A DNA stretch of 64,000 bases from Candidatus Heimdallarchaeum aukensis (lineage in GTDB: Archaea > Asgardarchaeota > Heimdallarchaeia > Heimdallarchaeales > Heimdallarchaeaceae), in assembly GCA_021513695.1 (NCBI GenBank), contig CP084166.1, forward strand, positions 1,280,001 to 1,344,000, written 5' to 3'. Made by a program: the position numbers and the translations under genes. Numbering within the stretch: the stretch's first letter is position 1; each line of letters begins with the position of its first letter. Shown here in pieces: positions 9,379 to 63,971 of this stretch. Under the pieces are notes generated by a model. The model did no database searches, was not told where the DNA came from, and was given only the letters and a program-made list of their open reading frames with translations.

Positions 9379-10137
9379 ATGAGTCAATCAGAGCTCCAGT
9401 TATCAGATATTTTTAGCGTAGATAAAGATGGAAAGCCCACAATCAAAATTGTTCTTTTTGGTCCCACCTTAGCTGGAAAAACCAGTATGCTTACCGTTTT
9501 TAATGCTTTAAGAAGAATGGAAGATCCAGATCTTATTGTAAGTTCTCTTACCAAAATCCAAGAATATGGTCGAACAGTTTTCTTTGATCACTCTGTTTTT
9601 CAAACACCACCTTTCAAAGGTAAGAAATTTGATCGTCTTCGTTATCATCTATGGACAGTTCCTGGGGAAGAGAGACATAAGGCCCAAAGAGATATTGTTA
9701 TGAGAGGTGTAGATGCTGTTTTACTATTTTTAAATTTTGAAAAAACTGCTTGGGATTCAAATGTTAAAACAGTGAAAGAAGCAAAAGCAAAAATAGGAGA
9801 AAAATTCGGGAAAAAGATTCCAGTTGTTGCGTATATTAATAAATCAGACCTTCCTCCTGAAGAGCGTACAGATAAGCGTGCGTTTATTACATTTTTACAA
9901 GATATTGAAGCTATTCCAAAAGAGAATGTTGCAAACTATATTATGACTGGTAGTTGTCTTAATGCTCGTAATGACTTATTAACCATCTTAAAATCAGAAA
10001 ATCGTGATGAATACCTTGAAAATGAAAGATTGAAAACTAGTAAGCGTCCTGATTCAGTTTGGTTAGTGGTACGACCTATTCAAAAGCTTACACAATTAGT
10101 CGTACAGCAAAGAATGGAAGTTCTACAAGGCATATAA
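9379..10137 (+). CDS. MglA-like small GTPase (Ras superfamily)
   Basis: P-loop KIVLFGPTLAGKTSML. G3 motif is TVPGE, the MglA-type TxxG(Q) variant with Thr in place of the canonical Asp and Glu at the MglA Gln position, within YHLWTVPGEERHKAQRDIVMRGVDAVLLF. G4 motif NKSD. Confidence 0.7.
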   Translation: MSQSELQLSDIFSVDKDGKPTIKIVLFGPTLAGKTSMLTVFNALRRMEDPDLIVSSLTKIQEYGRTVFFDHSVFQTPPFKGKKFDRLRYHLWTVPGEERHKAQRDIVMRGVDAVLLFLNFEKTAWDSNVKTVKEAKAKIGEKFGKKIPVVAYINKSDLPPEERTDKRAFITFLQDIEAIPKENVANYIMTGSCLNARNDLLTILKSENRDEYLENERLKTSKRPDSVWLVVRPIQKLTQLVVQQRMEVLQGI

Positions 10138-10254
10138 CCTTTTTTTATCTTTTTTTCACGATGTTTATATAGTATTTTCTAGATTATTGTTTAAAGTAAA
10201 TCAAGTGTCTAATTCGATACTTATAATGTAGTAAATATAAAAGGAGTAGATAAA

Positions 10255-21321: not shown

Positions 21322-22494
21322 ATGAGTAATGAAGTATATATAATTGGTACTGGACAAACAAAATTTGGTGAATTTTTTAATTTAAACATTGGTGATCTTG
21401 CTTCTGAAGCAGTTAACAAAGCTATTGAAAACGCGGGAATAGGAAAAGATGAGATAAGAACGCTATTTATTGGGTCAACAGTTTCTAACTCTCTTTCTCA
21501 ATCATCAATAGGCGGAATTTGTACTAGAAGTTGTAGTTTATCTTCTAACGCTTACAGGATTGAATCTGGAAATGCTAGTGGTGCAGCTGCATTCCACCAC
21601 GCTTTTTTAAGCATAAAAAGTGGGTTATATGACGTTGTTGCTGTATTAGGAATTGATAAATTATCAGATTATATCCAAAATGGAACAATTGAAAAAATTT
21701 TAGCTTCATCCATTGATTACCAATGGGAATACGAAATGGGAGCTACCCTCACAGGATTATACTCTTTTCTGACTCAAGCTCATATGGAAGAATATGGAAC
21801 AACATTAGAACAGCTAGCTTATATTCCAACGAAAAACCATCAAAATGGAGTTCTAAACCCAAAAGCTCAATATAGGTATGCTATCCCACTAGAAAAATTT
21901 CTTAATGCAAAAAGAATTGCTGACCCTATTGGAAGGTTTGATGTGGCTACACCTTGTGACGGTGCAGCAGTAGTAATATTAGCTTCTGAAAGATATATTG
22001 AAAATAAAAAACCACATTCTTACAAGGTAAAAATTCTCTCCTCATCAGCTGGTTCAGACACTTTAGCTTTGCAACACAGAGAAAAACTAACAGAGTTAAA
22101 AGCAACTAGACTGGCTGTTAACGATGCTTACAATAAAGCCAAAATTTCAGCAAATGATATTAATGTTGCAGAAGTACATGATTCACACCCAATTGGAGAG
22201 ATATTAGCAATAGAAGATCTTGGTTTGGTACCTAAAGGTGAAGGAGGAAAAGCAACTGTAGAAGGGTTGACTGCGCTAAACGGAAAGATAACTGTTAACC
22301 CAAGTGGAGGATTAAAAGCTAGGGGTGATCCTTTCGGAGCAACAGGAATTGCACAGTTAATAGAAATCGTTGAACAAATAAGAGGAAATGCTGGAAAAAG
22401 ACAAGTCGAGGATGTAAAATATGGGTTAACACAAAATGTCATGGGAACAGGGGTTATGTCCTATGTTTCTATTCTAGGGAGAGGTGATAATTAA
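21322..22494 (+). CDS. acetoacetyl-CoA thiolase (intact copy)
   Basis: Thiolase-fold motifs. The stop overlaps the start of the DUF35 gene (TAATG). Confidence 0.8.
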   Translation: MSNEVYIIGTGQTKFGEFFNLNIGDLASEAVNKAIENAGIGKDEIRTLFIGSTVSNSLSQSSIGGICTRSCSLSSNAYRIESGNASGAAAFHHAFLSIKSGLYDVVAVLGIDKLSDYIQNGTIEKILASSIDYQWEYEMGATLTGLYSFLTQAHMEEYGTTLEQLAYIPTKNHQNGVLNPKAQYRYAIPLEKFLNAKRIADPIGRFDVATPCDGAAVVILASERYIENKKPHSYKVKILSSSAGSDTLALQHREKLTELKATRLAVNDAYNKAKISANDINVAEVHDSHPIGEILAIEDLGLVPKGEGGKATVEGLTALNGKITVNPSGGLKARGDPFGATGIAQLIEIVEQIRGNAGKRQVEDVKYGLTQNVMGTGVMSYVSILGRGDN

Positions 22495-31695: not shown

Positions 31696-32856
31696 ATGAT
31701 TCCGTACCATGTACAAGTTTTGTTAACTAATGTACCAAACATCGAAGAAGTGTCAATCAAAGAACTTATCGAATTAGATGTGAAAAAAATTAAAGGTATT
31801 GGTGACAAATATGCAAAGGTCTTGTACAGAAAAGGAATCAAGAAAGTAAAAGATTTAGCAAAGTTAGATTCTCAAGAAATAGATTTACCCGAAAAAATAG
31901 TTACTAAATGGATAGTTGCTGCAAGAATTATCGTTAATTCACAAAAAGTTCGCAGAACTGGAAAAATTATTTTCTCAGGTCTATCTCAAGCTGGAAAAAC
32001 AAGTATTGTTTATGTATTAAAGTCAATTGTTGAACTGCCTACAGTAACAATGGGGGTAAAACAAGATTTCATTAAATTTGCAGGGCACAATATTCAAATT
32101 TCAGATATGGGAGGACAAAAAAGATTTCGTGAGATTTACCTAACTACCCCTGATTTGTATTTTGAAAGAACAAAATTGGTTTTCTATGTAATTGATATTC
32201 AAAATAAAAAAAGAATAGATGATTCTCTCGAATATCTGAAAAGATTACTTGCAATTTACCGTTACTTGCACGAAAAACCGTTCATTTCTATCTTTTTCCA
32301 CAAATTTGATCCTGATTTATCCTACAACTTAAAATATGATATTCCACCCATAAAGGAGAAAATAGAGAAAATTTTTTCTCACTATACCGAATTTCAGTAC
32401 AATTTTTTCTACACTTCTATTTACAACCCACCTAGCATATACGTGGGAATTGCTTCAACTCTATCAGAGATATTTCCAGTAATGAGTATTTTAGACGTTT
32501 TACTTAAGGATTTTGCAGAATTACACGGTTTTGATGGTTTACTTATAATGGATAGTACAGGAATGTTAATTGGTCAATTCATACGAGGAGAACAAGAATC
32601 ATTGGTGGAAGAAACCTATTCTGCTTTTAAAGAAGCAAGAAAGATTGAAAAAAACCCTTTCGGCAATATTGTTTTACGAAAAAATATAGCAGACCCTCCA
32701 GGAGGAGAGATAGTTGTACAACAAATCTTTTTACCACACAATGATGGTTTTATCTTTTACTGGAAAAAAGAAGATACTGAAATTGATTTATCAGAGTATA
32801 TGTTAAGTGAGATAACAAAAACCCTTAATCCATGGTTGTATAACCTATTATCGTGA
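31696..32856 (+). CDS. Rag/Arf-like small GTPase with N-terminal HhH-like extension and C-terminal roadblock/LC7-like domain
   Basis: P-loop GLSQAGKTS, DMGGQ (DxxGQ), HKFD instead of NKxD as in Rag/Gtr. C-terminal …FDGLLIMDSTGMLIGQF… is roadblock-like. N-terminal IKGIGDKYAKVLYRKGIKKVKDLAKL is HhH-like. Confidence 0.55.
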   Translation: MIPYHVQVLLTNVPNIEEVSIKELIELDVKKIKGIGDKYAKVLYRKGIKKVKDLAKLDSQEIDLPEKIVTKWIVAARIIVNSQKVRRTGKIIFSGLSQAGKTSIVYVLKSIVELPTVTMGVKQDFIKFAGHNIQISDMGGQKRFREIYLTTPDLYFERTKLVFYVIDIQNKKRIDDSLEYLKRLLAIYRYLHEKPFISIFFHKFDPDLSYNLKYDIPPIKEKIEKIFSHYTEFQYNFFYTSIYNPPSIYVGIASTLSEIFPVMSILDVLLKDFAELHGFDGLLIMDSTGMLIGQFIRGEQESLVEETYSAFKEARKIEKNPFGNIVLRKNIADPPGGEIVVQQIFLPHNDGFIFYWKKEDTEIDLSEYMLSEITKTLNPWLYNLLS

Positions 32857-33635: not shown

Positions 33636-36623
33636 ATGCAAAGAACTGGGTTTGTTTTTTTTATTTTCTTAATGCTATCTAGTCCTTTTGTTTATCCTAC
33701 ACTAGCAAAACAAGAAAATAAAATAGACTTTATGTCCAATAATAATAATCAATTGATTTCTTCAATTCAAAATAACAAAAAAATCGTTTATGCTAATGAT
33801 CTTAGTAAAACTTGGGACACTCCACTTTCTGACGAAGAGTTAAAAAAACAATTTTTAGAAGCAGAAGGGAGAGCAATTATTTCTTTTTTCAGTTTTGCAG
33901 AACAGAAAAAAGCGATTGATATACTTGAAGGTCAAGGTATAAATGTAATTCTTAAGTATAATTCTTTTCCTGGACTAAAAATTGAATACAGCTGGAAAAA
34001 AGTAACGGATATTAGTTTAGATAATTTAAGAGTAAAATATGTTTCTCAAATTGGAAAAGATACCTTTTACTCTATTTCATTAGAACAAAATAAAGATACA
34101 ACTTTAACTGGTTTAATCGATCTTTCCGAATTAAGAGCAGCTTTAGAAATAGACTTCCTCCACAATCAAAAAGATAAAAATGGAGACTATCTCTTCGGAA
34201 AGAACATTACAATTGCAGTAATGGATAGCGGTATAGAATCTTCTCTAAAAGGCCTTAATAAAAAATTTAAATATCTTGGAAACGGAGCAATTCAACCTAC
34301 TGATGAGGATAAAATTGTCTACGATTTTAATGCTGTTCCTGGTGAGGATAAAAATGATTTAAGCGGTCATGGTACTCATATAACTTCTATTCTTGCAGGG
34401 AATGGATTTTTCACTGTTGATGGAAAAGTACAATATGAGGGAGAATATGGAATAGTTCCTGAAGCATCTTTGATGAATATTAAAGTTTTGAATGCAAGTG
34501 GTTATGGGAAAGATGAGTGGTTGGTTGATGGTTTTGATAAAGCTATTGCAAATGAGTTAAACATTGTTCCTGATATTATAACTGCAAGTTTAACTTCAAT
34601 TACTTTTTTAAGTGAACATGACCCACTTAATGAAATTGTGCAAGAAGCAGCTAAAAAAGGAATAATGATAGTTACTTCTGCAGGAAATTATGGACCAACG
34701 AGTTCATCTATTGGTTCTCCAGCTGTATGGGAAAACGTTTTATCAATTGGCAGTACCTCAACTATGAAAGATATCTCACTATTCAGTTCAAGCGGTCCAA
34801 CACCATATTTAACAGCTGGAGTGGATTTAGTAGCACCAGGAAGATTAGTTTTAGGATTAAATAGTAGTACAGGAGAAAAGAGATACACATCTGGAACATC
34901 AATTTCAACACCAATAGTTTCAGGAATACTGGCTTTATTAAAACAAGCTTTTCCAGAGTACAACTCTTCACAGTTAGAATCGGCAATATTAAACACAGCA
35001 GACGATTTGAATAAGCCAATAGTTTTTCAAGGAAATGGATTAGTAGACGCTAGAGAAGCTTATTTCTGGTTAAAAAACAACCCAGGGATTACTTTTTCGA
35101 TTCTACCTAAGCGTATTTCACCTGAAAATCTATTCTTTTACTCATGTGTTGAAGGAACACAATCATCTTTCAAAGTGAAAACAATATCTAGTGATGAACA
35201 GCATTTATGGACAAATATAACTGGAGACGATGAGATAGTAGAAATCGGAGAAGAGATAGTTCTTTCAAAGGGTTGGAATATCTTTTCATTTAACATTACT
35301 ATTCCTTATAATAAACCTATTAAGAATTACCAAGCTGTAATAACTTTTACAAATTCTGAAAATTATACTGAAAATATAACAATTAATCTTCAATCTAGAT
35401 ATTACAGAGGATCGATTCTCTTTGATATTAGCCATGATAGTGATATAACAAACAATTCATGGTTTGGTGGATCGTCTCCTTATGGAGCTCATCTATATAT
35501 GGCAAGAATGTTAAAAGATAGAGGTTTTAAGATAAGCACTTTTTCTGAAGGAAACTTTTCTGATGAATTGAGCAAAAATGACATTTTGGTTATTTCAGAC
35601 CCTGAAAAGCATTTTTCTATAGATGAAAGAGAACAGATATATAATTTCATAAAAGACGGTGGTTCATTCTTGCTTTTAGTAGATAGCTATAGAATAGAAG
35701 TAGAATCTGCTAAAGAAGATCCAATTTATCCAAGTAATTATACAGCTATTGACAATTTAGTAGGTTCTCTTGGTATCACAATAGATCCCGATTTCCATTC
35801 AATGCAAACTCCTTATGCTACTGTGTTTTCTAGTGGGCATTCAGATATTACAGATGTAGAGGAAGCATTCTTTTTAGGTTCATGTTTACAATTCGATAAT
35901 GATACAAATTCAGATGTAAAACTTTCTCCTTTATCTGCGATTAATATAGGTACAGAAAAATCTCCGTTCTGGAAAATTACTGGTGTAGTTGGAGAGTATG
36001 GTAAAGGAAAAATAATTGTTTTCGGTTCAGGATACACATTCTCTAATTTTGGATTAATGTATGATGAATTCGATGTAGACTACAGAAATAGAGGTGCAAT
36101 TGGATTAGGGAGTATAAGTTATAACCATTTGTTCAGTGATGAGATGGATAAAAACAATAGAGAACTTATAAATGATACCTTTAGTTGGTTATCGACTTTC
36201 AACAGACCAATAATCGATTTTAGCTTGGATCAAGAAAAGATTCTAATTAGAGAAGAATTTACTATTTCTGTCTCAGTGACTATGACAAGTGAATTTCAAC
36301 AAGGGAATCCATATGCAACTCAATATCTTAATGGAACAATTCTTTTCAGCGACAATTCAATTAGATATGTTGTTCTCTCTGCAGTTGGAGCAGGAATTTA
36401 TGAGCTTTCTACTTCAATTTCGCGTTATGGAGAATTTACGTTATTTATTCCTTTGAAGTTAGAAGGGCACAACCCCACTGACGGGAGAATAGACTTGTTT
36501 TGTGATGTTGAACTTTGGGATCAACAACAAGAAATTGCAAACATAGCAAACCTTGTTCTCACTTTATTTTTCATTGTTCTGCTTGGTTTACCTTTTGTTA
36601 ATTATCGCTTCAAAAATAAATAA
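33636..36623 (+). CDS. secreted subtilisin-like serine protease (S8) with C-terminal membrane anchor
   Basis: Signal peptide. Asp in VMDSGIESS, His in HGTHITSILAG, Ser in GTSISTPIVSG. C-terminal TM plus RFKNK. Confidence 0.85.
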   Translation: MQRTGFVFFIFLMLSSPFVYPTLAKQENKIDFMSNNNNQLISSIQNNKKIVYANDLSKTWDTPLSDEELKKQFLEAEGRAIISFFSFAEQKKAIDILEGQGINVILKYNSFPGLKIEYSWKKVTDISLDNLRVKYVSQIGKDTFYSISLEQNKDTTLTGLIDLSELRAALEIDFLHNQKDKNGDYLFGKNITIAVMDSGIESSLKGLNKKFKYLGNGAIQPTDEDKIVYDFNAVPGEDKNDLSGHGTHITSILAGNGFFTVDGKVQYEGEYGIVPEASLMNIKVLNASGYGKDEWLVDGFDKAIANELNIVPDIITASLTSITFLSEHDPLNEIVQEAAKKGIMIVTSAGNYGPTSSSIGSPAVWENVLSIGSTSTMKDISLFSSSGPTPYLTAGVDLVAPGRLVLGLNSSTGEKRYTSGTSISTPIVSGILALLKQAFPEYNSSQLESAILNTADDLNKPIVFQGNGLVDAREAYFWLKNNPGITFSILPKRISPENLFFYSCVEGTQSSFKVKTISSDEQHLWTNITGDDEIVEIGEEIVLSKGWNIFSFNITIPYNKPIKNYQAVITFTNSENYTENITINLQSRYYRGSILFDISHDSDITNNSWFGGSSPYGAHLYMARMLKDRGFKISTFSEGNFSDELSKNDILVISDPEKHFSIDEREQIYNFIKDGGSFLLLVDSYRIEVESAKEDPIYPSNYTAIDNLVGSLGITIDPDFHSMQTPYATVFSSGHSDITDVEEAFFLGSCLQFDNDTNSDVKLSPLSAINIGTEKSPFWKITGVVGEYGKGKIIVFGSGYTFSNFGLMYDEFDVDYRNRGAIGLGSISYNHLFSDEMDKNNRELINDTFSWLSTFNRPIIDFSLDQEKILIREEFTISVSVTMTSEFQQGNPYATQYLNGTILFSDNSIRYVVLSAVGAGIYELSTSISRYGEFTLFIPLKLEGHNPTDGRIDLFCDVELWDQQQEIANIANLVLTLFFIVLLGLPFVNYRFKNK

Positions 36624-52565: not shown

Positions 52566-54137
52566 ATGGCAATGAATTCATTAACTTTAAACATTTTAGG
52601 GTTAGTTATTTTATTTATATTTGTTTTTTCTGTTCTAGCAACAGTAGAAATATTAAAGATAAAACAACTTTTAGAAGGAAAAACATCAAGAAAAGTAATT
52701 CATATATTAGTAGGAAATGTGGTTATTGTTTTTCCATTTGTTTTCTCAAATTTATGGTTTGCTTTAGTGGGCCCATTATTCTTTGTACTTTTCACTTATT
52801 TAACATGTCCAGGAAGCCCTATTAAAAAATTCAGACTTAAAAGTGTTGAAGAGGGACACACTTATGGTACTGTTTTTTATGCAATATCTTTAACAATTCT
52901 TGTTGTTTTATTTTTTGAACCAGAACACTTCAATCAAAAAAATGTAATAATTTTTGCTTCTTTTCTTCCTTTGGTATGGGGAGATGGAATTAGTGCTGTT
53001 ATTGGATTAAAGTATGGTAAAAAGGGAGAATTTACGATATTCAAAGACAAAAAATCACTAATTGGAAGTTGGTCTCTTGCTATTTCTTCTTTGGTTGTAG
53101 TTACTATTATATTGACCTTTTTCCAGATTAATTTCTTTGTTTCTCTTTACATTGGATTACTTATAGCTTTTATCTCAACCATAATTGAAGTAGTTTCACC
53201 AAAAGGGTTAGATAACATCACAATTCCAGCAGTTAATGCTTTGGTTCTCTATTTAATGTTTAAATCGTTAAATAACAATTTTAATACTTTAGAGGAAAGG
53301 ATTTCAAAAACCACCATCCTTATCGCATTATGTTTATCTTTTGTCATAGCTGCAGCAAGTATTTCAGTAAAAGCACTAACGTGGGATGGAGCTCTAGCTG
53401 GATTCTTTTTTGGCATTGTCATTTTTGGATTAGGTGGGTGGAGTTGGGGCGCGATGTATTTTGCATTTTTCCTAATTGGGAGCTTAACCACATTCTTTAA
53501 GAAAAAGGAAAAAAGCGACATAACCAAGGAATTTGAAAAAGGATCAACAGCAAGAGATAGCATACAAGCTTCAGTGAATAGTTTTATTCCTGTAATTGCA
53601 GCTTTATTGAATTTAATTTTTCCTTCGCACTTTTTCACTGTTATAACTGCAGGAGCTTTAGCTACAAGTCTAAGTGATACTTTAGCTACTGAAATAGGTT
53701 CGCTATCCAAAAAAAACCCAAGAGAAGCAATTAGACCATGGAAAGAAGCAAAAAAAGGTTCTCCAGGAGCAATTTCAATATTAGGAACATCAGCTTCATT
53801 ATTGGGTGCAGGAATAATAGCAATAGCAGGATGGATAGGTAGTCTCTTTGAAAAAACTTCTTTATTCCAAAATAATACAGCCATATTACTTTTAATAATA
53901 ACATTTAGTGGTTTCATTGGAGCTTATTTTGATAGCGTTTTTGCAGAAACAGTTCAATGTCTGAATAAATGTTCAATCTGTGGAAAAATAACAGAAAAAA
54001 CTTATCATTGTGAAACAAAAACAGAGTATTTTAGAGGTATTAAATTCATAAAAAATGATTTGGTAAACCTACTAAGCATCACAGTAGGTTCAGTTCTCTC
54101 TATTACCTTCGTATTTCTTGTTGAGCTATTGTATTAG
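52566..54137 (+). CDS. fusion of a CTP-dependent polyprenol (phytol/dolichol) kinase-like domain (VTE5/SEC59 family) and a DUF92/VTE6-like polyprenyl-phosphate kinase-like domain
   Basis: N-terminal half: RKVIHILVGN… and WGDGISAVIGLKYGK…KKSLIGSW (VTE5-like GDG…GR/K.fG…KS.eGS). C-terminal half: GGWSWGAMYF…RDSIQASVNSFIP (DUF92-like). C-terminal CxxC pairs. Confidence 0.5.
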   Translation: MAMNSLTLNILGLVILFIFVFSVLATVEILKIKQLLEGKTSRKVIHILVGNVVIVFPFVFSNLWFALVGPLFFVLFTYLTCPGSPIKKFRLKSVEEGHTYGTVFYAISLTILVVLFFEPEHFNQKNVIIFASFLPLVWGDGISAVIGLKYGKKGEFTIFKDKKSLIGSWSLAISSLVVVTIILTFFQINFFVSLYIGLLIAFISTIIEVVSPKGLDNITIPAVNALVLYLMFKSLNNNFNTLEERISKTTILIALCLSFVIAAASISVKALTWDGALAGFFFGIVIFGLGGWSWGAMYFAFFLIGSLTTFFKKKEKSDITKEFEKGSTARDSIQASVNSFIPVIAALLNLIFPSHFFTVITAGALATSLSDTLATEIGSLSKKNPREAIRPWKEAKKGSPGAISILGTSASLLGAGIIAIAGWIGSLFEKTSLFQNNTAILLLIITFSGFIGAYFDSVFAETVQCLNKCSICGKITEKTYHCETKTEYFRGIKFIKNDLVNLLSITVGSVLSITFVFLVELLY

Positions 54138-56119: not shown

Positions 56120-56542
56120 TTAAATTAAGACACCTATAGAAAAATTTGAAGAAGGATAGTAATTTTCATCATTTTTTTTGAGAATAAAGCCCATTCCTGT
56201 ACCAACAGAAGTAGAAAAAACACCCATTTTGCCATTTTGTACTTGCAATATGACTTCTACTTTTCTTTGTGGAAAAACTGTTTTTTCTAAAAGAAAGGAA
56301 ATTTCACCTTCTTTGGTATTAGTAAATTCTTTTTCGATTACTGGATTTTCATCAATCAATAGGCTTAGTTGTGCTTTTAAGTTCCCTTCTAAATTTGAAA
56401 TTTTAGCGACAACGCCTTTAATTCCTGTATCTCTAAAGAGAATACTTGCAAACATTTGCTTTATTGAAGATATATCATCCCCTAACCATAGAACTTTAAA
56501 TGATGGGGATGATATATCATATCCCCATATTGGTTCAGTCAT
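56120..56542 (-). CDS. hypothetical protein
   Basis: 140-aa ORF with no family recognised. Confidence 0.3.
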   Translation of the reverse strand: MTEPIWGYDISSPSFKVLWLGDDISSIKQMFASILFRDTGIKGVVAKISNLEGNLKAQLSLLIDENPVIEKEFTNTKEGEISFLLEKTVFPQRKVEVILQVQNGKMGVFSTSVGTGMGFILKKNDENYYPSSNFSIGVLI

Positions 56543-56546
56543 TCAA

Positions 56547-57509
56547 TCACCTTTTCTTTTGTTTTATATATAAAGCAATAATTGCAACCACGGATAACGG
56601 ACCAATAATTATTAGAAAGATGACCGGTAGGCTTGTAGTCTTGTAAAAGTAATTAAGTAAATTGTTTACAAATAGTTTTCCTTGTATGGGACTACCGTGT
56701 TCTCCCTCTTCTCCATACATATTTTTATATGTACTGAATAGTACTTCTCCAGAAACAATAAGATGTGATTCTCCAAAGTCTTCGTATACTACAGCGGGAT
56801 AATTTCCTTTTTCATCTAGAGAGATGTAGAAATCACTTTCAGTGTTACTATAATCTTGATCTAACATTTCAGCAGACTCATTATAAGAGAACAGGACTTC
56901 TATTCCTTCAATTGTTTGTGTTCGTAAATCGACAAAATTTCCATTTTCCATTCCATATACAGCTGTTGGGCCATGAAGTAATAGCCTTTCTACTCCTTCA
57001 TTTACAACAGAACCGATATCTCCTGTTCCAGGATTGGTTGCAATAACACGGTATCCTGTACCGTCATTAGAGTATAGGTCAGAAACTGCACCAGAATCTA
57101 ATCTCAATTTAGAATCAATGTATTCTAGTAATGGATTAATGGACTTATGTGAGATAAATTGACCTGCATAATCAGAGTCCCCTGCTATCCATAGCAATTT
57201 ATCAGGATTTGAAAACCATGTTTTAATAACATTCATTTCATCCGAAGTGTAGTTTATTCTAGAAGCAGGAATTAGTAACATATCATAATCGTTAATATTC
57301 GTGAAATTTTCGATTTCATCGACAATATTACCACTTTCTAAGTAATCAGTTTTAAAAAGATCATAGGTTATATGCATAGGAGAGTGGCCAATGTCAATAG
57401 CTATCTTCTTTTTAGATAACCTAATTTCTGAAGCTTGTACTAAAACCACAAAAGAAATTTGTTCAGTGACTAAAAATAATAAAAATAAAGTTGTTAATAT
57501 TTTTTTCAT
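56547..57509 (-). CDS. secreted membrane-anchored protein, paralogue A (DUF4350-like?)
   Basis: Signal peptide. WFSNPDKLLWIAGDSDYAGQF…RLDSGAVSD…NDGTGYRVIATNPGTGD. C-terminal TM plus KQKKR. Confidence 0.45.
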   Translation of the reverse strand: MKKILTTLFLLFLVTEQISFVVLVQASEIRLSKKKIAIDIGHSPMHITYDLFKTDYLESGNIVDEIENFTNINDYDMLLIPASRINYTSDEMNVIKTWFSNPDKLLWIAGDSDYAGQFISHKSINPLLEYIDSKLRLDSGAVSDLYSNDGTGYRVIATNPGTGDIGSVVNEGVERLLLHGPTAVYGMENGNFVDLRTQTIEGIEVLFSYNESAEMLDQDYSNTESDFYISLDEKGNYPAVVYEDFGESHLIVSGEVLFSTYKNMYGEEGEHGSPIQGKLFVNNLLNYFYKTTSLPVIFLIIIGPLSVVAIIALYIKQKKR

Positions 57510-57686
57510 AGGAGGAAAAGAACTATTTTTTTAAAAAAGTTTATGTTTAGTCTTGTTATGAGGATTTACACATCTAAAAGAATAATGTCGATGTATAAAT
57601 ATTTTAAAACTTATTATATTCTATGAGAAATATTTAATTATTGGAATATTATAACATATTCAGCACAATCGTGCGGTGAAAAAAAG

Positions 57687-58676
57687 ATGAAAAAAACAAT
57701 TGTAGGCCTACTTCTAATAGTGACAATTTTAGCCACTGTCCCTTCAACTTTTGCTTATGACACATCAATCAAAGTAAAAAATAAAACAATCATGATTGAT
57801 GTAAGTCATGGAGCATATCATACATCAGTTGAAAATTTCAAGGGAAATCTTACTGAAGCAAAGAATACAGTAGTAATGCTAGAGAGCGATCTCTTGACTA
57901 ACTTTACTGCTGAAGCTGATGCTCTGTTCATGTCAGGACCAGACGAAATGTATACTGGTGAAGAAACCGAAAAGATCAAGGATTGGTTCAACCAAGGAGG
58001 AAAATTCCTCTTCATTGGTGGAGATTCTGACTACGGTGGTTACTTCTCTCCAGTAGCTATAAACAACCTTCTAAGAAACTTAGGAGCTAACATTAGATTA
58101 GACAGTACATCAATCAGTGATGAAAATAACAACGACGGAGCATCATACAGAGTTGCAGCTACTCAACCAGGTACTGGTGATGTTGCTACAAAGGTAACAG
58201 AAGGTATGGAAGCTGGTTTCATTCTTCATGGACCATGTTCTATACTTGGAATCAACACTTCAACAGCAGTTCCTGAATATCTTGACCTAAGAACTGCAAC
58301 ACTTCCTAATGTTGAAGTTTTATACAAATATTCAGCAGATGCTGTATCAAGTGACAGTGACGTTAGTGGATTGCCAACTGACTTATATGCAGAGTCTGAC
58401 ACAACTGGAAACTATCCAGCTGTAGTCTTAGAAACAATTGGCAATTCATACTTAGTATTAGCTGGTGAAGCCATCTTCACTGACTATAAGTCTATGTATG
58501 ATCAATTCACTGAAACTGGAGAATATAATGGCGGAGTAACCTATGGACAAATGTTCGTTAATAACCTAATTAACTACTTCCTAGGTGAAGCTCAAGCTCC
58601 ATTACCAATTGCTCCAGTTGTTGCTGCCTTAGCTTTATTTGGTGGCGCATTAGTCATTGTTAGAAGAAGAAAGTAA
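57687..58676 (+). CDS. secreted membrane-anchored protein, paralogue B (DUF4350-like?)
   Basis: WFNQGGKFLFIGGDSDYGGYF…RLDSTSISD…NDGASYRVAATQPGTGD. C-terminal TM plus RRRK. Clearly homologous to 56547-57509. Confidence 0.45.
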   Translation: MKKTIVGLLLIVTILATVPSTFAYDTSIKVKNKTIMIDVSHGAYHTSVENFKGNLTEAKNTVVMLESDLLTNFTAEADALFMSGPDEMYTGEETEKIKDWFNQGGKFLFIGGDSDYGGYFSPVAINNLLRNLGANIRLDSTSISDENNNDGASYRVAATQPGTGDVATKVTEGMEAGFILHGPCSILGINTSTAVPEYLDLRTATLPNVEVLYKYSADAVSSDSDVSGLPTDLYAESDTTGNYPAVVLETIGNSYLVLAGEAIFTDYKSMYDQFTETGEYNGGVTYGQMFVNNLINYFLGEAQAPLPIAPVVAALALFGGALVIVRRRK

Positions 58677-58689
58677 ATAAAGTTTTAAC

Positions 58690-58722
58690 TTTATTTTATT
58701 TTTTTATTTTTTTATTTTGTTT
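58690..58722 (+). terminator. T-rich tract after paralogue B
   Basis: ttttattttatttttttatttttttatttt. Confidence 0.3.
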
Positions 58723-58837
58723 CTAAGATTCATTTTTTATGTCTTAACTTATCATAATTTTTTAAAGCAGAATCTTCCAATAGTACATAAATTTATTAGG
58801 GCTACTTCATTATAAATACAAGGACTCTGGGATAATA

Positions 58838-60445
58838 ATGAATACATTTGGGTTAATTATTAATTATTTAAGGAAAGGAAGACTATTTTCTGTCTCTCCA
58901 AATACCGTTTTATTACCAAATGATATTTTATTATTATCCATTAGGAGTAATATTCAACATTTATATTTTCAAGAATGGCTAAAGGACGAACAACTAGTTG
59001 TGAATATTATTTCACCAATTGGTACAATTGTTGATAGTTTAGATATAGATCTAAAGTATACTGGATTAGAAGAATTTTATTCTTTTGAAATATCGAATAA
59101 TCTATATTCTGGTGTTTATATTTTATCAATTCAAGGGAAAAACACAGAAATTAAAAGAAAAATCACAATAAAAACAAACAGGAAATTAGTTAATCATTAT
59201 ATTCTTACTTATGGAGCTAAAATTACTAACACTAGTGAAGAAAATCTTACCGGGTTTATTGCTGATATTGTAATTCCACCAAATATAGGACAATTTCAGG
59301 AAGTTCAAAAAATTAAATTCAATATTAATCCTGTTGAAAAAAAGTGTGACATTGATGGAAACTGTTGGGCAAGGTTTCATTTTCCTATAGTCTATCCAAA
59401 TGAAGATATTATTTTAGAATACAAAGCCCTTGTTACCACTAAAATTATAGGTTATGATGTTACTCGCATAAAAACAATTAGAGAATTAGAAGAAGTAAAC
59501 TATGAATTTTTTGAGAGATATACTAGAAATGAACCCTTTATTGAAAGTGATGACATTTTAATTAAGAAAGTCACACGGTCATTAAAATCAGAAAATCCAA
59601 TAGACAAGGCCATCAATATTCTAAATTACATTCAAAAAAACATTAATTACCAACATGAACTAGGTGACTTTGGAGCAAAATATGCCATAAGAGCAAAAAG
59701 GGGAGATTGTACAGAATTTGCAAGCTTATTCGTTGGAATGTGTAGAGCAGCTAAAATACCAGCTAGACTTGCAACTAGCTTAATAAAAGAAGACGGTTTA
59801 AGATGGGAAAAACATTCGTATGCAGAGTTTTTCGCAAAAGGTATTTGGTGGCAAATAGATCCGACACTAAACACAGATAAGCAATATTTAACAAGAAATC
59901 CAGAGAATATTGTCCTATTAAGAGGAAACTCATTAGCTAAAACTCATATTAAAGAAATAAGGTATTTTCATTCAGATCTAAAAAGGAAAAAAGTAAATGT
60001 CCAAATTTATTGGAAGGTTGAAGAAGTAAAAACTTTCAGTCAAAATAATGAAAAGAGAGGTCATGTTTGGGATAACCAAAATAATTCAAATACGCGATTA
60101 AATACACAAAGAAAAGACATTGTTCAAGATGCTAATAAAAGTTTTATCTCAATAAACGTTCCTACTTTACCTGAAGTTTCTACAGGGTCAATTTATAAAG
60201 TACCTGTAAGATTGATTAATAATTCCACATCAGAAGTATCAGGAACACTAGTTGTTTCTATAAATCGCGGAGGTATCTTCATTAGTCAGCTCTATCAGAG
60301 AACAATAAAAGCTAAATCAAACACTGGTATTGTTGTTGACATTCCCGCACAAAGCTATTTTGGTCCAGCAATGATTGAATTTAGTTTTCAAGATAACACT
60401 GGTTTTGTATTCTGTAAATCAGAAAAGAAGATTCAATTTCAATAA
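58838..60445 (+). CDS. transglutaminase-like (TGc) cysteine-protease-fold domain protein
   Basis: RGDCTEFASLFVGMCRAAKIPARL core motif, with a downstream H…D. Confidence 0.55.
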   Translation: MNTFGLIINYLRKGRLFSVSPNTVLLPNDILLLSIRSNIQHLYFQEWLKDEQLVVNIISPIGTIVDSLDIDLKYTGLEEFYSFEISNNLYSGVYILSIQGKNTEIKRKITIKTNRKLVNHYILTYGAKITNTSEENLTGFIADIVIPPNIGQFQEVQKIKFNINPVEKKCDIDGNCWARFHFPIVYPNEDIILEYKALVTTKIIGYDVTRIKTIRELEEVNYEFFERYTRNEPFIESDDILIKKVTRSLKSENPIDKAINILNYIQKNINYQHELGDFGAKYAIRAKRGDCTEFASLFVGMCRAAKIPARLATSLIKEDGLRWEKHSYAEFFAKGIWWQIDPTLNTDKQYLTRNPENIVLLRGNSLAKTHIKEIRYFHSDLKRKKVNVQIYWKVEEVKTFSQNNEKRGHVWDNQNNSNTRLNTQRKDIVQDANKSFISINVPTLPEVSTGSIYKVPVRLINNSTSEVSGTLVVSINRGGIFISQLYQRTIKAKSNTGIVVDIPAQSYFGPAMIEFSFQDNTGFVFCKSEKKIQFQ

Positions 60446-60537: not shown

Positions 60538-61248
60538 CTATTGGTTTAAAAAATAAATTATTACACTAATCGATAATGGAATATAAAGATTATCAAATAA
60601 GTTTTTACAAATAAATTCTAAGACAGTAGCGAATATTGCTAATAGAAAGATAATAAGAAAGTTCTCAATAATACTGATTTTGTACATATAATAAGTAATT
60701 GTTAAAGCTGTAAGAGAACCCAGAAAAACAGCAAATGAGCCTTCTAAGGTTTTTGGATAGTTTCTAATGACTTTGGATTTTCCGAAAGATCGACCCACAA
60801 GTTCTCCCATTCCATCGCCAAGAGATAAGACAAATATTCCTCCCACAAAAGCGAAAGGAGAATCAAGAGTTATGAAAAAAACGTAAATTAGCATTAAAGC
60901 AGTCAGAATAATATTTATACCTAATTCTTTTTTTGGTTCATCGATTCTATGATCTTTTGAAATAAAGAAATCAAATAATTTTATTGACGGAATTATTGAC
61001 AAAATACCCACAATCAGAACAGAAATAAAAAAGATTGCTAAAATGTCATAAAAATTAGTGTTTAGAGCTCTTAAAATTCCAATATAAAGGAGAAAGGACA
61101 TATGATCAAGTTTCCTTTTTCTCCAAGAGCAGAGCTTGGTTTTTGAAAGTAAAAAAGAAGCTAAAAAAAGAAAAGCAAGTCCTAGTACTGATAGAAAAAT
61201 TGACACCCAATTCATTTCTTTGTAATCGAAAATCATTATCAGGTTCAT
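60538..61248 (-). CDS. CTP-dependent polyprenol kinase family membrane protein (stand-alone VTE5/SEC59-like)
   Basis: SLGDGMGELVGRSFGKSK…KTLEGSFAVF matches the family signature. 6-7 TM helices. Confidence 0.5.
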   Translation of the reverse strand: MNLIMIFDYKEMNWVSIFLSVLGLAFLFLASFLLSKTKLCSWRKRKLDHMSFLLYIGILRALNTNFYDILAIFFISVLIVGILSIIPSIKLFDFFISKDHRIDEPKKELGINIILTALMLIYVFFITLDSPFAFVGGIFVLSLGDGMGELVGRSFGKSKVIRNYPKTLEGSFAVFLGSLTALTITYYMYKISIIENFLIIFLLAIFATVLEFICKNLFDNLYIPLSISVIIYFLNQ

Positions 61249-61277: not shown

Positions 61278-63971
61278 TTAGACCCCAGTTATTGCTTCTG
61301 TTCTTGAGCCAAGAATGATATTTGTAAATACTAGACTAAGTATTTGTAGGAACATTAAGATTACTCCTAAAGCACAGAATATTTGAAACCTTGCATTAAC
61401 TTGATTTGCCATCATCCATGTTAATGTTCCACCAAGTTCTGAAGTGATTAGAAAAACTGTAGTTGAGACTTCAGACAAGCAGTACAAGAACGAAACAAGA
61501 CTTCCTGCGAACACATTAAGAGAAATCATAGGTACAGTTATTTTTGCAAAAGTTTTCATTCTTCCAGCTCCCAGATTAAAGGAAGACTCTTCTAGCACTT
61601 TATCCATCTGTTGTAAACCAGCATATGCTGCTCTAACTGTGAATGGGAATTTTCTAATTGTATATGAGAGTACTAAAAGTACATAAGCGATACCCACAAA
61701 AGGATCAAGGTGCGCTTTTACTACAAATTTATTCATAAACAAGTTAAATGAATTAGGATTGTTAGTGAAAATTGTACCCCAATCAAAAGTTCGATAATAT
61801 CCAAGCGCTAAAACGATTCCAGGTATAGCAATTGGAACAGTAACCAGTGAGTCAAAAGCTGCTTTTCCTTTAAACTCTTTTCTACTCACCACATAAGCTG
61901 CCAATGAGCCTAAAATAACAATTAATATTGTTGCAGCAAAACTGTAAAGTAGAGTATTTCGGACAAAACTTGGAATATTATACTGCGAAGATACAAAGAT
62001 AAGTCTATAATTTTCTAAAGTAAAACTCATGTTTTTTATATTAGATGAACCTAGTGTTTCGCTAATTGACATCATTATTATACCAACATGTACGATTAAA
62101 GAAAGTGCGAATAGGATAACAAGGAATGGATAAATAATCAACAACTTCCATTTTGCTTTACTTAACCTATATTGGCCTGCACGCCCCTTAGAAACCATAG
62201 AATACTGTCTTAGCGAAACATATTTTCGTATAACTAGAAATCCTGCTATAGCAATCACTAACAGAAGACCACCCAAGACACATACTTCTGGAGTTATAAT
62301 GTTAGAACTTGAAAGTTGAAAATCAGAAAAGATGTAGTATGTTAGAAATTGCCTTGCAAAATTATCTCCCATACCAACGAAGATAATTGGTGTTCCTACA
62401 TCTTCCATTGATAATATAAGTACTAAAATAGCTCCTGCACCAATACCAGGAAGAGCTAGAGGTAAAGTCACAGTAAAGAATAATCTAAAACTACCAGCTC
62501 CAAGGTTTTCAGCTTGTTCTTCCATACTTGGGTCAACATTAACAAATGAAGAGAAAGCGTTTAAATAAACTAAAGCATAAAAATGAAAACTTTGTACAAA
62601 GCAAATTGCAACAAAACCTTCAATAATAAATCTTGAATGGAAGACTGGAATAAGGAAGAGGGTATTAAGTAATCCATTAGGGCCTAAGAAATATCTGAAA
62701 CCCATTCCGCTAATAAAGGGTGGAATAATTAAAGGAGCGAGGGCTAAAACACTGAAGAACTTCTTTCCAGGAAATTCGTACCTAGCTAAAATAAAAGCTA
62801 ATGATGTTCCTAATAGAACTGAAATAAGAGTGGTAACAAGGCCAAGAATTAATGTGTTTAGAACAATTCCCCTTGATACACCTACTAGCTTGTAAGTTGT
62901 AATCTCAATATTATCTTGATATTGGTATATTTTTTCAAATTCTGTCATATCATGAGTATCTAGAATTAGTACTCCATCACCCCCATTTGCAACATATACA
63001 AAATCAGTTATTGGGTCATAAAATATATCTTCTACACCAACTATTCCTAAACTATAGGATAAAAGGTGAGATATATTGTACGGATTTGTAACATTATAAG
63101 CTTCTATACTATAAAAGTCTCCAATTTTCGAAGTTATAAATGCTTTATTATTAAAAACGTTGATATTATCTGCACGCCTGTTTTCTCTGTGAACCAAAGT
63201 AATGTTAGAAGGGTCTGAAATATCAAGAACTACGAAACCTGTACTTCCCAGTGACAAATATGCGTAATCATCAATAATTTGTATTTCTTTTGCTCTCAAA
63301 CTTATACCGTCGATCTCTTCCACTCTTGAATATAAAGAAGGATTCGAGGGGTCAGAAATATCAAAAATCATTAACCTTGAATATGAACCAACTAAATAAG
63401 CATAATTATCTTTAATTTTAATATCATCTGAATCTGTCTCTAATGTAGCGTTTCCAATTAGTTCTGGGGCAGATGGATCACTTATATCATAAATTAAGAA
63501 ACCATCATCTTGATAGTCAAGAAAAGCGTAATTATCATGTATAGTAATAAATTCTGTTTTATTGGTGGGTAAAGGAGTTATGGATACAATGTCTGTACCT
63601 TCACCAACATCGCTTACATTGAAAATCATTAATCCCTGTCTTGAATCTGAAGCAAATAGTAGTTCTCCACGTTGTTCAATATCTGTTACAAAACTATTAT
63701 CAAATTTTATTTGGTTGATTTCCTCAACATTATTGTAATCAGTTACATTTAGAACTTCAATCCCTTCAAAACCCTCTGCGGTATAGATATAACCATTTGA
63801 ATAGAGTATAGACTTTGCATAACCTCCAAATTCATAATTCTGGTTTTTTGTAAAAAATGAAGTTGAGGAATCACCTTTAAAATTAAAGAATTTTTCATCA
63901 GAAAAAACACGACCAAAAGCGTAAAAAGTTATTTGACCTGACTCTTCTAAATAAATTGCAACATTTATCAA
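61278..63971 (-). CDS. fusion of an N-terminal LVIVD-repeat beta-propeller-like domain and a two-module ABC permease (Fe3+/polyamine-type, 2x BPD_transp_1)
   Basis: Repeats …IFDISDPSNPSL…, …VLDISDPSNITLV…, …YNVTNPYNISHL…. These are followed by ~550 aa with about 12 TM helices in two homologous halves. Confidence 0.55.
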   Translation of the reverse strand: MINVAIYLEESGQITFYAFGRVFSDEKFFNFKGDSSTSFFTKNQNYEFGGYAKSILYSNGYIYTAEGFEGIEVLNVTDYNNVEEINQIKFDNSFVTDIEQRGELLFASDSRQGLMIFNVSDVGEGTDIVSITPLPTNKTEFITIHDNYAFLDYQDDGFLIYDISDPSAPELIGNATLETDSDDIKIKDNYAYLVGSYSRLMIFDISDPSNPSLYSRVEEIDGISLRAKEIQIIDDYAYLSLGSTGFVVLDISDPSNITLVHRENRRADNINVFNNKAFITSKIGDFYSIEAYNVTNPYNISHLLSYSLGIVGVEDIFYDPITDFVYVANGGDGVLILDTHDMTEFEKIYQYQDNIEITTYKLVGVSRGIVLNTLILGLVTTLISVLLGTSLAFILARYEFPGKKFFSVLALAPLIIPPFISGMGFRYFLGPNGLLNTLFLIPVFHSRFIIEGFVAICFVQSFHFYALVYLNAFSSFVNVDPSMEEQAENLGAGSFRLFFTVTLPLALPGIGAGAILVLILSMEDVGTPIIFVGMGDNFARQFLTYYIFSDFQLSSSNIITPEVCVLGGLLLVIAIAGFLVIRKYVSLRQYSMVSKGRAGQYRLSKAKWKLLIIYPFLVILFALSLIVHVGIIMMSISETLGSSNIKNMSFTLENYRLIFVSSQYNIPSFVRNTLLYSFAATILIVILGSLAAYVVSRKEFKGKAAFDSLVTVPIAIPGIVLALGYYRTFDWGTIFTNNPNSFNLFMNKFVVKAHLDPFVGIAYVLLVLSYTIRKFPFTVRAAYAGLQQMDKVLEESSFNLGAGRMKTFAKITVPMISLNVFAGSLVSFLYCLSEVSTTVFLITSELGGTLTWMMANQVNARFQIFCALGVILMFLQILSLVFTNIILGSRTEAITGV

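Follow-up and report, generated by a model that had tools for sequence, protein, structure and literature searches.

Genes A and B, a divergent pair in the 64-kb window analysed (the whole stretch of DNA, from Candidatus Heimdallarchaeum aukensis), encode old and diverged copies, ancient paralogues within one Asgard family. They are type-I anchored GIFT modules that lack an amidotransferase nucleophile, and they probably serve a non-amidotransferase binding or scaffold role at the cell surface, with the adjacency of a transglutaminase-core (TGc) gene best read as inherited synteny. The features of the locus are listed in Table 1.

Table 1 Features of the A/B locus, in positions of the window
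Feature	Position	Strand	Description	Basis
Gene A	56547..57509	-	320 aa, type-I membrane-anchored GIFT-domain protein	ORF
Gene A signal peptide	57429-57509	-		hydropathy
Gene A ectodomain	56643-57428	-		
Gene A TM + KQKKR tail	56550-56642	-		hydropathy
Gene A GDSDYAG motif	57162-57182	-		
A/B divergent intergenic spacer	57510..57686		177 bp, AT-rich	sequence
Gene B	57687..58676	+	329 aa, type-I membrane-anchored GIFT-domain protein	
Gene B signal peptide	57687-57758	+		
Gene B ectodomain	57759-58595	+		
Gene B TM + RRRK tail	58596-58673	+		
Gene B GDSDYGG motif	58020-58040	+		
Oligo-T-rich tract	58677..58720	+	ATAAAGTTTTAACTTTATTTTATTTTTTTATTTTTTTATTTT, directly 3' of B stop codon	sequence
TGc gene	58838..60445	+	535 aa, Transglut_core protein	
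TGc core	59573-59863	+		
TGc triad codons	Cys291 59708-59710; His326 59813-59815; Asp341 59858-59860	+		
p140 gene	56120..56542	-	140 aa, orphan cytoplasmic protein	ORF

A sequence-only reading of this region had described two paralogous genes for secreted, membrane-anchored proteins, and both open reading frames, together with the 177-bp divergent region between them, are present exactly where it placed them. The two proteins share 37% identity and 55% positives over their full length (BLASTP, 320 versus 329 aa, E = 2e-70), and the shared blocks quoted in that reading are all real and are the most conserved motifs of the family (GDSDYGG, RLDS..S.SD, NDG..YRV, HGP, DLR, GNYPAVV, and YK.MY). 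The signal peptides, C-terminal anchors, and basic tails were likewise recovered: each protein has an N-terminal hydrophobic segment, an ectodomain of ~270 aa, and, near its C-terminus, a hydrophobic helix that leads into RRRK or KQKKR. The topology is type I, with one C-terminal transmembrane (TM) helix and a short, basic tail on the cytosolic side. For an archaeosortase-type C-terminal sorting signal, the NCBIfam matches were all below threshold (PVV-CTERM 0.027, MYXO-CTERM 0.42).

The conserved polar residues are retained in both copies. The family HMM matches A with an E-value of 7.7e-108. When A was set against B at 26 conserved positions, it departed at one, where C184 is changed to T, and kept the other 25. 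An N-x-S/T sequon found in 40 of 41 family members, including B, is missing from A; A is the faster-evolving paralogue and B the conserved copy. The two may have subfunctionalised or may have joined as a putative heteromer. Across the family alignment, 15 positions are invariant and about 35 are nearly invariant, with Asp, His, Arg, and Asn predominating where strands end, and the invariant D38, H45, D113/D115, D145, R155, H181, R202, and D232/Y234 are predicted to lie at the C-terminal ends of beta-strands. Judged by position relative to the secondary structure, these Asp, His, and Arg residues appear to cluster, and they are most likely a putative glycan- or Ca2+-binding site. The Cys-His-Glu triad of class-I glutamine amidotransferases, with its elbow Cys, was sought in A and B and not found. 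The elbow motif of the family is G-D-S/A-D-Y, with Ser114 replaced by Ala in 5 of 41 members; A has no Cys at all, and the single Cys of B (C184) is away from the nucleophile elbow.

The class-I glutamine-amidotransferase-like (GATase1-like) alpha/beta fold anticipated from the sequence is present in the model of B, which comprises one alpha/beta domain (residues ~30-300) with the TM helix directly after it and the GDSDY motif after strand 4. The closest structural relatives of A and B appear to be IFT52, OST48, the S1P domain, and the GH42 middle domain, all of them non-catalytic modules, in a PDB-based ranking that favors the small number of GIFT domains with solved structures. IFT52 is a better match than OST48 by every method. 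Each ectodomain is a single GIFT-type (GldG/IFT52/OST48-like) domain of the class-I glutamine-amidotransferase-like superfold from which the nucleophile has been lost, and at the cell surface A and B probably serve for binding or as scaffolds, without amidotransferase activity.

In both Pfam and NCBIfam the scores of A and B fall short of the curated thresholds, so their family assignment rests on fold and weak profile matches. A GDSL lipase had been named as a case against the DUF4350-like interpretation, and no GDSL/SGNH match was found for A or B in Pfam or NCBIfam at E ≤ 1; other well-known families were rejected for lack of Pfam or NCBIfam matches. The DUF4350 model (PF14258, gathering score 30.4) gives 19.6 bits for B (E = 1.2e-3) and 14.7 bits for A (E = 0.039), and it matches 24 of the 41 family members at E ≤ 0.1, with a best E-value of 8.9e-5. 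DUF4350 is also the UniRef name of the H. endolithica orthologue, and the four-copy family protein P0045 alone passes the Pfam cut-off, at 70.7 bits. The proposal that the paralogues are DUF4350-like thus stands at the level of the fold, whereas the Pfam scores of A and B stay below the gathering threshold. Their architecture is that of arCOG01314, and they are an already described, uncharacterised archaeal protein type; by architecture they would be divergent relatives of archaeal arCOG01314/DUF4350 and of bacterial GldG/ABC_transp_aux.

All named members of the A/B subfamily belong to Asgard archaea, and within this taxonomic range of named members the family has so far been found only there. 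In Heimdallarchaeota, where related loci were searched with an 11-sequence family alignment, the GIFT gene linked to TGc is mostly single-copy. The wider family has expanded and includes fusions to adhesin-like modules, with the GIFT domain reused in large surface proteins and pectate-lyase-like beta-helices fused to some paralogues.

The published label "WBP1/OST48," given by Eme et al. (2023) to the arCOG01314-annotated Heimdallarchaeial cluster S1SH2070012561, invites a more specific interpretation. OST48/DDOST and yeast Wbp1 are the subcomplex-III subunit of the eukaryotic oligosaccharyltransferase (OST), and A and B share with them the type-I topology, the single C-terminal TM helix, and the short basic cytosolic tail. 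It is possible, if doubtful, that A and B are Heimdallarchaeial counterparts of OST48/Wbp1, duplicated in Heimdallarchaeum into two diverged copies, and that they are non-catalytic type-I subunits docking on AglB/STT3 with Ost2/Swp1 homologues and aiding lipid-linked glycan recruitment. An evolutionary version deserves the same tentative standing: the TGc-linked GIFT gene might be what Eme et al. (2023) took as a "divergent WBP1/OST48 homologue" and, with its one domain, might represent a minimal precursor of the eukaryotic OST subcomplex-III subunit, duplicated in Heimdallarchaeum into a conserved B that kept the sequon and a fast-evolving A that lost it, with the Asgard extracellular GIFT expansion as the pool for both OST48 and IFT52. 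Against the OST48 reading, none of the 41 family members matches the Pfam OST48 models (PF03345 and PF23358), and OST48 is missing from the Foldseek top 50. The hhalign probability of A1 is 0.7% against human OST48 (the query was human DDOST, 100% identical to 8b6l_N) and 0.2% against a metazoan OST48 profile of 15 sequences, which is shallow because only metazoan sequences stand among the 120 matches listed in the homologue search with OST48. No Asgard OST48-like protein appeared among those matches. OST48 membership by sequence was rejected on these insignificant hhalign matches. Furthermore, the B model shows a single luminal domain, against two in Wbp1 (PMC7226087), no genes for STT3/AglB, ribophorin, Ost2, or Swp1 were found in the window, and the expansion of the family and its adhesin-like fusions are unlike a dedicated OST subunit.

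An accessory role in export is unlikely. Here an ABC-2-type exporter would have A and B as its extracytoplasmic subunits, much as GldA/GldF has GldG, the accessory component of the ABC-2 transporter for gliding motility, and A and B would aid the export or assembly of a surface polymer. The GldG-family model ABC_transp_aux (PF09822) is the joint most frequent Pfam match in the family (24 of 41) and reaches the lowest E-value of any (1.1e-6), arCOG01314 has an HHpred probability of 99.2% to GldG (PMC5898192), and one paralogue (P0020, in loci L005, L006, and L017) divergently adjoins ABC_tran and ABC2_membrane_3 genes. This neighborhood was nevertheless seen in one paralogue lineage only; an ABC-2 transporter is found beside A and B neither in the window nor in any TGc-linked locus, and the adjacent LVIVD-ABC permease and SBP form an importer-type BPD_transp_1 system. 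The GIFT domain is shared with GldG/ABC_transp_aux, whereas B scores 16.9 bits against a threshold of 34.7, and the NCBIfam GldG score is negligible (TIGR03521, E = 0.14).

The density of conserved residues raises the question of catalysis: about 15 invariant, mostly charged residues are more than a mere scaffold would seem to need and could be the mark of an enzyme instead. A and B would then be extracellular enzymes, e.g., carbohydrate-active hydrolases or esterases, in which a GATase1-like scaffold carries the invariant Asp/His cluster, similar to ThuA, dimethylformamidase, or PfpI-type proteins. The prevalence of Asp, His, Arg, and Asn where strands end agrees with this, D115 and H181 correspond under our putative mapping to two sites of GATase1 folds, the nucleophile elbow and the loop with the catalytic His, and the beta-helix fusions of the paralogues resemble pectate lyases. 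We nonetheless consider an enzymatic role very unlikely, because neither a Cys nor a Ser nucleophile is conserved, the closest structural relatives are non-catalytic, and the two DSD-type motifs are equally consistent with structural Ca2+ sites.

The next gene had been read as encoding a transglutaminase-core protein, and Pfam Transglut_core (PF01841) matches it with 73.3 bits (E = 2.3e-20), well over the cut-off of 23. Two N-terminal beta-sandwiches precede the TGc core and a C-terminal beta-sandwich follows it, and none of the triad residues Cys291, His326, and Asp341 varies among 16 homologues. The model is most like a bacterial putative cysteine protease, with 3isr (a bacterial TGc-like putative protease) and animal transglutaminases as best relatives, and a PNGase (Png1/NGLY1) reading, attractive beside an OST48-like gene, was rejected in view of them. 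Since TGc has no signal peptide or TM segment, it and A/B are in different compartments. TGc is predicted to be a cytoplasmic Cys-His-Asp enzyme, transcribed separately, whose adjacency would reflect inherited synteny and not a shared pathway. Archaeal transcription termination occurs at oligo-T, and the tract 3' of B is a candidate archaeal terminator separating B from TGc. Scans for sigma-70 promoters and intrinsic terminators gave fewer sites than shuffles, with models that are not meaningful for an archaeon. The A/B spacer is 95% identical to that of H. endolithica; because the coding DNA on either side is conserved to the same degree, this identity is uninformative about regulatory sites.

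TGc adjoins a GIFT gene in the large majority of TGc-carrying Heimdallarchaeota loci, and the divergent spacer is common to most, but this adjacency is part of a ~12-gene synteny, with exceptions, and the surrounding block including PGK is as well conserved as the pair. One locus has TGc and no GIFT gene (L011), and in another the two are separated (L012). TGc is probably a syntenic neighbor of A and B and not a functional partner, although the survival of the adjacency through some local rearrangements (L007, L023) may point to a functional link. On the other side of the pair, p140 starts 4 nt beyond the A stop codon and is therefore probably cotranscribed with A. In most TGc-linked Heimdallarchaeota loci a p140 homologue comes next downstream after the GIFT gene; it is displaced in L007 and L015 and is kept in L011, which has no GIFT gene. 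Neither p140 nor p236 has Pfam, NCBIfam, or PDB relatives.

The sequence-only interpretation of the whole, that secreted DUF4350-like proteins join with the TGc enzyme in a reduced Bat/MoxR-type module for remodelling or cross-linking the cell surface, is the least probable: the frequent TGc-GIFT pairing, the intact TGc triad, and the adjacency of arCOG01314 genes to MoxR and vWA genes in other archaea (PMC5898192) speak for it, and against it are the absence of AAA_3/MoxR, DUF58, and vWA from the 64-kb window (Pfam, all ORFs of at least 150 aa), the separate compartment of TGc and its likeness to a protease, the block-wide synteny with its broken pairings, and a paper on arCOG01314 that makes no mention of transglutaminase (PMC5898192). 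Among called genes with Pfam annotation in related loci, MoxR, DUF58, and vWA were not found either. What survives of that interpretation is the DUF4350-like fold and not the Bat-like cross-linking module.

Eukaryotes have GIFT domains in two of their hallmark machines, in OST48/Wbp1 for N-glycosylation and in IFT52 for ciliary transport. A Heimdallarchaeon, of the archaeal lineage closest to eukaryotes, has a sizeable membrane-anchored GIFT family, and among solved structures the best relatives of this family appear to be those two eukaryotic proteins. The published claim of an OST48-like subunit in Heimdallarchaeia thus has concrete, well-modelled candidates in A, B, and the orthologues, mostly single-copy, with the caution that a generic arCOG01314/DUF4350-type surface module and an OST subunit cannot be told apart by fold and topology alone. 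In annotation terms, the tempting functional cassette of A and B with their transglutaminase neighbor is corrected.

Compared with known systems, site-1 protease (MBTPS1; PDB 8uw8, 9csd) has a GATase-like fourth domain, and A and B have no protease domain. A subtilase is encoded in the window; its catalytic domain is nearest to archaeal Tk-SP, not S1P, and it gives no match to the A/B family HMM at E ≤ 1e-3. The N-terminal GIFT domain of IFT52 (PDB 5fms, 5fmr, 8bd7) shares its fold with A and B at 11-13% identity, and the IFT52_GIFT model (PF23355) scores 19.8 bits, below its threshold of 27.2; IFT52 is a cytosolic IFT-B subunit without a signal peptide or TM helix, whereas A and B are secreted and membrane-anchored. 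Closest in architecture are the archaeal membrane-anchored flavodoxin-like proteins of arCOG01314/DUF4350 (Makarova, Galperin & Koonin 2015, PMC5898192), whose signal peptide, large extracellular flavodoxin/GATase1-like domain, and one C-terminal TM helix are all present in A and B. The A/B subfamily differs from them in standing without MoxR or vWA operon partners and in having its own invariant motif set (GDSDYGG, HGP, GNYPAVV).

The genes A and B are paralogues whose proteins align over their full length (37% identity, E 2e-70), and each carries a hydrophobic signal-like segment at the N-terminus and, at the C-terminus, a hydrophobic helix that runs into a basic tail. The sequence-only reading, in which two membrane-anchored secreted paralogues diverge from a short spacer and are followed by a transglutaminase-core gene (TGc), holds in each of these features, and its ORF positions were exact (see the table). 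A Candidatus Heimdallarchaeum aukensis protein, encoded on a contig of 3.08 Mb, matches TGc at 100% identity, and B has a 95% identical orthologue in Ca. H. endolithica, which places the window in an Asgard (Heimdallarchaeia) genome of ~31% GC. Our analysis shows A and B to be type-I membrane-anchored extracellular GIFT-domain paralogues that lack the amidotransferase nucleophile, and shows that both are under purifying selection.

Features of the locus and of the remaining window
Feature	Position	Strand	Description
GTPase	9379-10137		small, Ras/Roc-like
Actin-like protein	10255-11301		ALP_N/MreB-like_C
Tandem repeat, first copy	~14080-18270
Tandem repeat, second copy	~18268-22455
GTPase	31696-32856		Gtr1/RagA/Arf-like, helix-hairpin-helix at N-terminus
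Subtilase-GIFT protein	33636-36623	+	995 aa; Peptidase_S8, then ABC_transp_aux/GIFT domain
DUF92 fusion protein	52566-54137	+	523 aa
p140	56120-56542	-	orphan ~140-aa cytoplasmic protein; start codon 4 nt past A stop
A	56547-57509	-	320 aa
A/B spacer	between 57509 and 57687		177 bp
B	57687-58676	+	329 aa
Sequon in B	57846-57854		residues 54-56
TGc	58838-60445	+	535 aa; Pfam Transglut_core 73.3 bits (cut-off 23)
p236	60538-61248	-	unannotated 236-aa membrane protein adjoining TGc
LVIVD-permease fusion	61278-63971	-	897 aa

Pfam and NCBIfam scans of A and B gave sub-threshold matches only, all in the GATase1-like/GIFT group. For B, the Pfam matches were IFT52_GIFT (E 4.4e-4), DUF4350 (1.2e-3), GATase1_like and ABC_transp_aux (4.1e-3 each) and MBTPS1_4th (0.054), to which NCBIfam made no significant addition. 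When 41 family members were scanned individually, ABC_transp_aux was found in 24 (best 1.1e-6), DUF4350 likewise in 24, and IFT52_GIFT in six. The family profile matched nothing significantly among all PDB sequences, the best being IFT52 (E 0.045). The AlphaFold2 model of B, built from the 41 sequences, is confident (pLDDT 91.3, pTM 0.84) and has a single alpha/beta domain (residues ~30-300) joined to the TM helix by a short linker. Its closest known structures are the IFT52 N-terminal GIFT domain (score 20.7; E 3.9e-9), human OST48 (18.5 over 237 aligned residues), Chlamydomonas IFT52 (16.0; 3.9e-6), yeast Wbp1 (14.8), a ThuA-like protein (4jqs, 14.7), site-1 protease (14.6; 2e-7) and a GATase1-like protein (3rht, 14.4); OST48, Wbp1, 4jqs and 3rht fell outside the Foldseek top 50, and the GH42 middle domain was among the next Foldseek matches. 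Furthermore, A and B lack the amidotransferase triad, A contains no cysteine, and G-D-S/A-D-Y-G-G makes up the loop that follows strand 4, Ala standing in place of Ser in 5/41 members. From the profile matches, the model with its structural relatives and the missing triad, the ectodomain is identified as a GIFT-type, non-amidotransferase GATase1-like domain; the class-I-GATase-like, DUF4350-like fold proposed earlier is right at the fold level.

An exhaustive profile search returned 702 clusters at E<=1e-3, of which 126 reached E<=1e-30, and all name-bearing members are Asgard (Heimdallarchaeota, Kariarchaeaceae, Hodarchaeales, Thorarchaeota or Promethearchaeota). Proteins of 1,200-3,600 aa carry up to 4-8 copies of the domain, and it is also found joined to parallel beta-helix/NosD, Ig-like (Big_7, HYR) or Bmp modules; a building block of the cell surface behaves in this modular way. 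The family has fifteen invariant positions and ~35 that are nearly so, mostly Asp/His/Arg/Asn at the C-terminal ends of beta-strands (D38, H45, D113/D115, D145, R155, H181, R202, D232/Y234). Because these conserved residues sit at strand ends, they probably form a ligand (glycan) or Ca2+ site, their clustering being judged from their positions relative to secondary structure. In the alignment, 40/41 members share an N-x-S/T sequon (mostly N-L-T), A being the sole exception with D-Y-L, which suggests a conserved N-glycosylation site or structural motif given up by the fast-evolving A.

We propose that A and B would serve on the cell surface as modules for binding or scaffolding (glycan or Ca2+), and that they possibly form a heteromer. 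That they are instead an OST48-like accessory subunit of AglB is unlikely: hhalign gave a probability of 0.2-0.7% between OST48 and the family, and Pfam OST48 models matched 0/41 members. A GldG-like partnership with an ABC-2 exporter is more doubtful still; in its favor, one dispersed paralogue, P0020 (L005/L006/L017), lies divergent to an ABC_tran ATPase and an ABC2_membrane_3 permease, as in GldA/GldF/GldG. An 883-aa beta-helix/NosD protein is encoded 4.5 kb from P0020. An extracellular enzyme using the Asp/His cluster is slightly less probable again.

Across 16 homologues, TGc keeps Cys291, His326 and Asp341 without exception. Adjacency to a GIFT gene is widespread, found in the large majority of distinct Heimdallarchaeota loci carrying TGc, the usual arrangement being TGc(-) / GIFT(+) / p140(+). 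Conservation extends equally over the whole block (SBP, LVIVD-ABC permease, (p236), TGc, GIFT, p140, GNAT, PGK, DUF92, p196, (TPR, RDD), GT1), including the glycolytic gene PGK. Exceptions exist: L011 lacks only the GIFT gene, GNAT and PGK stand between GIFT+p140 and TGc in L012, and p140 is relocated in L007/L015. No TGc was found near dispersed GIFT paralogues, nor any MoxR, DUF58 or vWA gene among the ORFs of 150 aa or more in the 64-kb window. We therefore conclude that the adjacency is inherited synteny, and the suggested Bat-like cross-linking module of A, B and TGc, the least probable reading, is unsupported on the same grounds.

A is probably co-transcribed with p140, which has no detectable family but has homologues in L001, L003, L010-L013, L016, L018-L023, L026, L027 and L029. 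The place of p140 immediately after the locus-linked GIFT gene is conserved across Heimdallarchaeota, and p140 is kept in L011 despite the missing GIFT gene. p236 shares homology with the DUF92 fusion protein, its C-terminal half matching the latter's N-terminal module at 28% identity (pairwise E 5e-9). Their common motif, GDG(x)5G(x)2GK, presumably resembles that of polyprenol/dolichol or phytol kinases, with no supporting Pfam, NCBIfam or PDB match. In the LVIVD-permease fusion, an N-terminal LVIVD-repeat beta-propeller is combined with two permease domains of ABC importers (BPD_transp_1; WtpB/ModB/PhnU-like); every related locus retains this fusion beside an SBP gene.

A-type and B-type copies fall into two distinct clades of a distance tree, and H. 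aukensis, H. endolithica and a third MAG (L003) have members in both; at the locus, most other Heimdallarchaeota carry one copy. Between H. aukensis and H. endolithica, A is 85% and B 95% identical, so A is the faster-evolving copy; it retains 25/26 conserved positions compared. In L003 (642-2689) the paralogues stand in tandem on one strand, B then A. Relative to L003, only B is inverted in place in the two named species (window 56547-58676), and this clean single-gene inversion created the divergent arrangement and its promoter region.

Elsewhere in the window, a 4,185-bp tandem duplication, exact at 100% identity in 200-nt bins, takes in the 5' portion of a subtilase gene together with HMG-CoA-synthase-like and thiolase-like genes; of the two subtilase copies, the second is cut short (606 vs 1,013 aa), and the repeat either arose very recently or is an artefact of assembly. 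Genes of the eukaryote-signature type that is typical of Asgard genomes lie at 9379-11301 and 31696-32856. The GIFT domain of the 995-aa subtilase is above threshold (44.9 bits), also matches DUF4350 and IFT52_GIFT, and is not matched by the A/B family HMM at E<=1e-3. The protein's S8 plus GATase-like domain order resembles eukaryotic site-1 protease (S1P), whereas the nearest relative of its catalytic domain is archaeal Tk-SP (3afg) and not S1P.

A and B are new members of the known, uncharacterised arCOG01314/DUF4350-type GIFT proteins. Makarova, Galperin & Koonin (2015; PMC5898192) defined arCOG01314, its N-terminal part being DUF4350, by a signal peptide, an extracellular GldG-similar flavodoxin-like domain and a single C-terminal TM helix, with genes usually in operons with MoxR and vWA genes. 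A and B have this architecture, but lack such an operon and fall under the Pfam threshold. A related Heimdallarchaeial cluster has already been labelled WBP1-like: the report by Eme et al. (2023; PMC10307638) was of [quoted passage not shown], and their supplementary table has one 17-member cluster annotated arCOG01314|arCOG01312, present at roughly one copy in each genome. The TGc-linked GIFT gene, itself mostly single-copy, fits the description of this cluster, as judged from annotation and copy number. While not itself a new system, the locus supplies clean candidates on which the Asgard OST48 claim can be tested.
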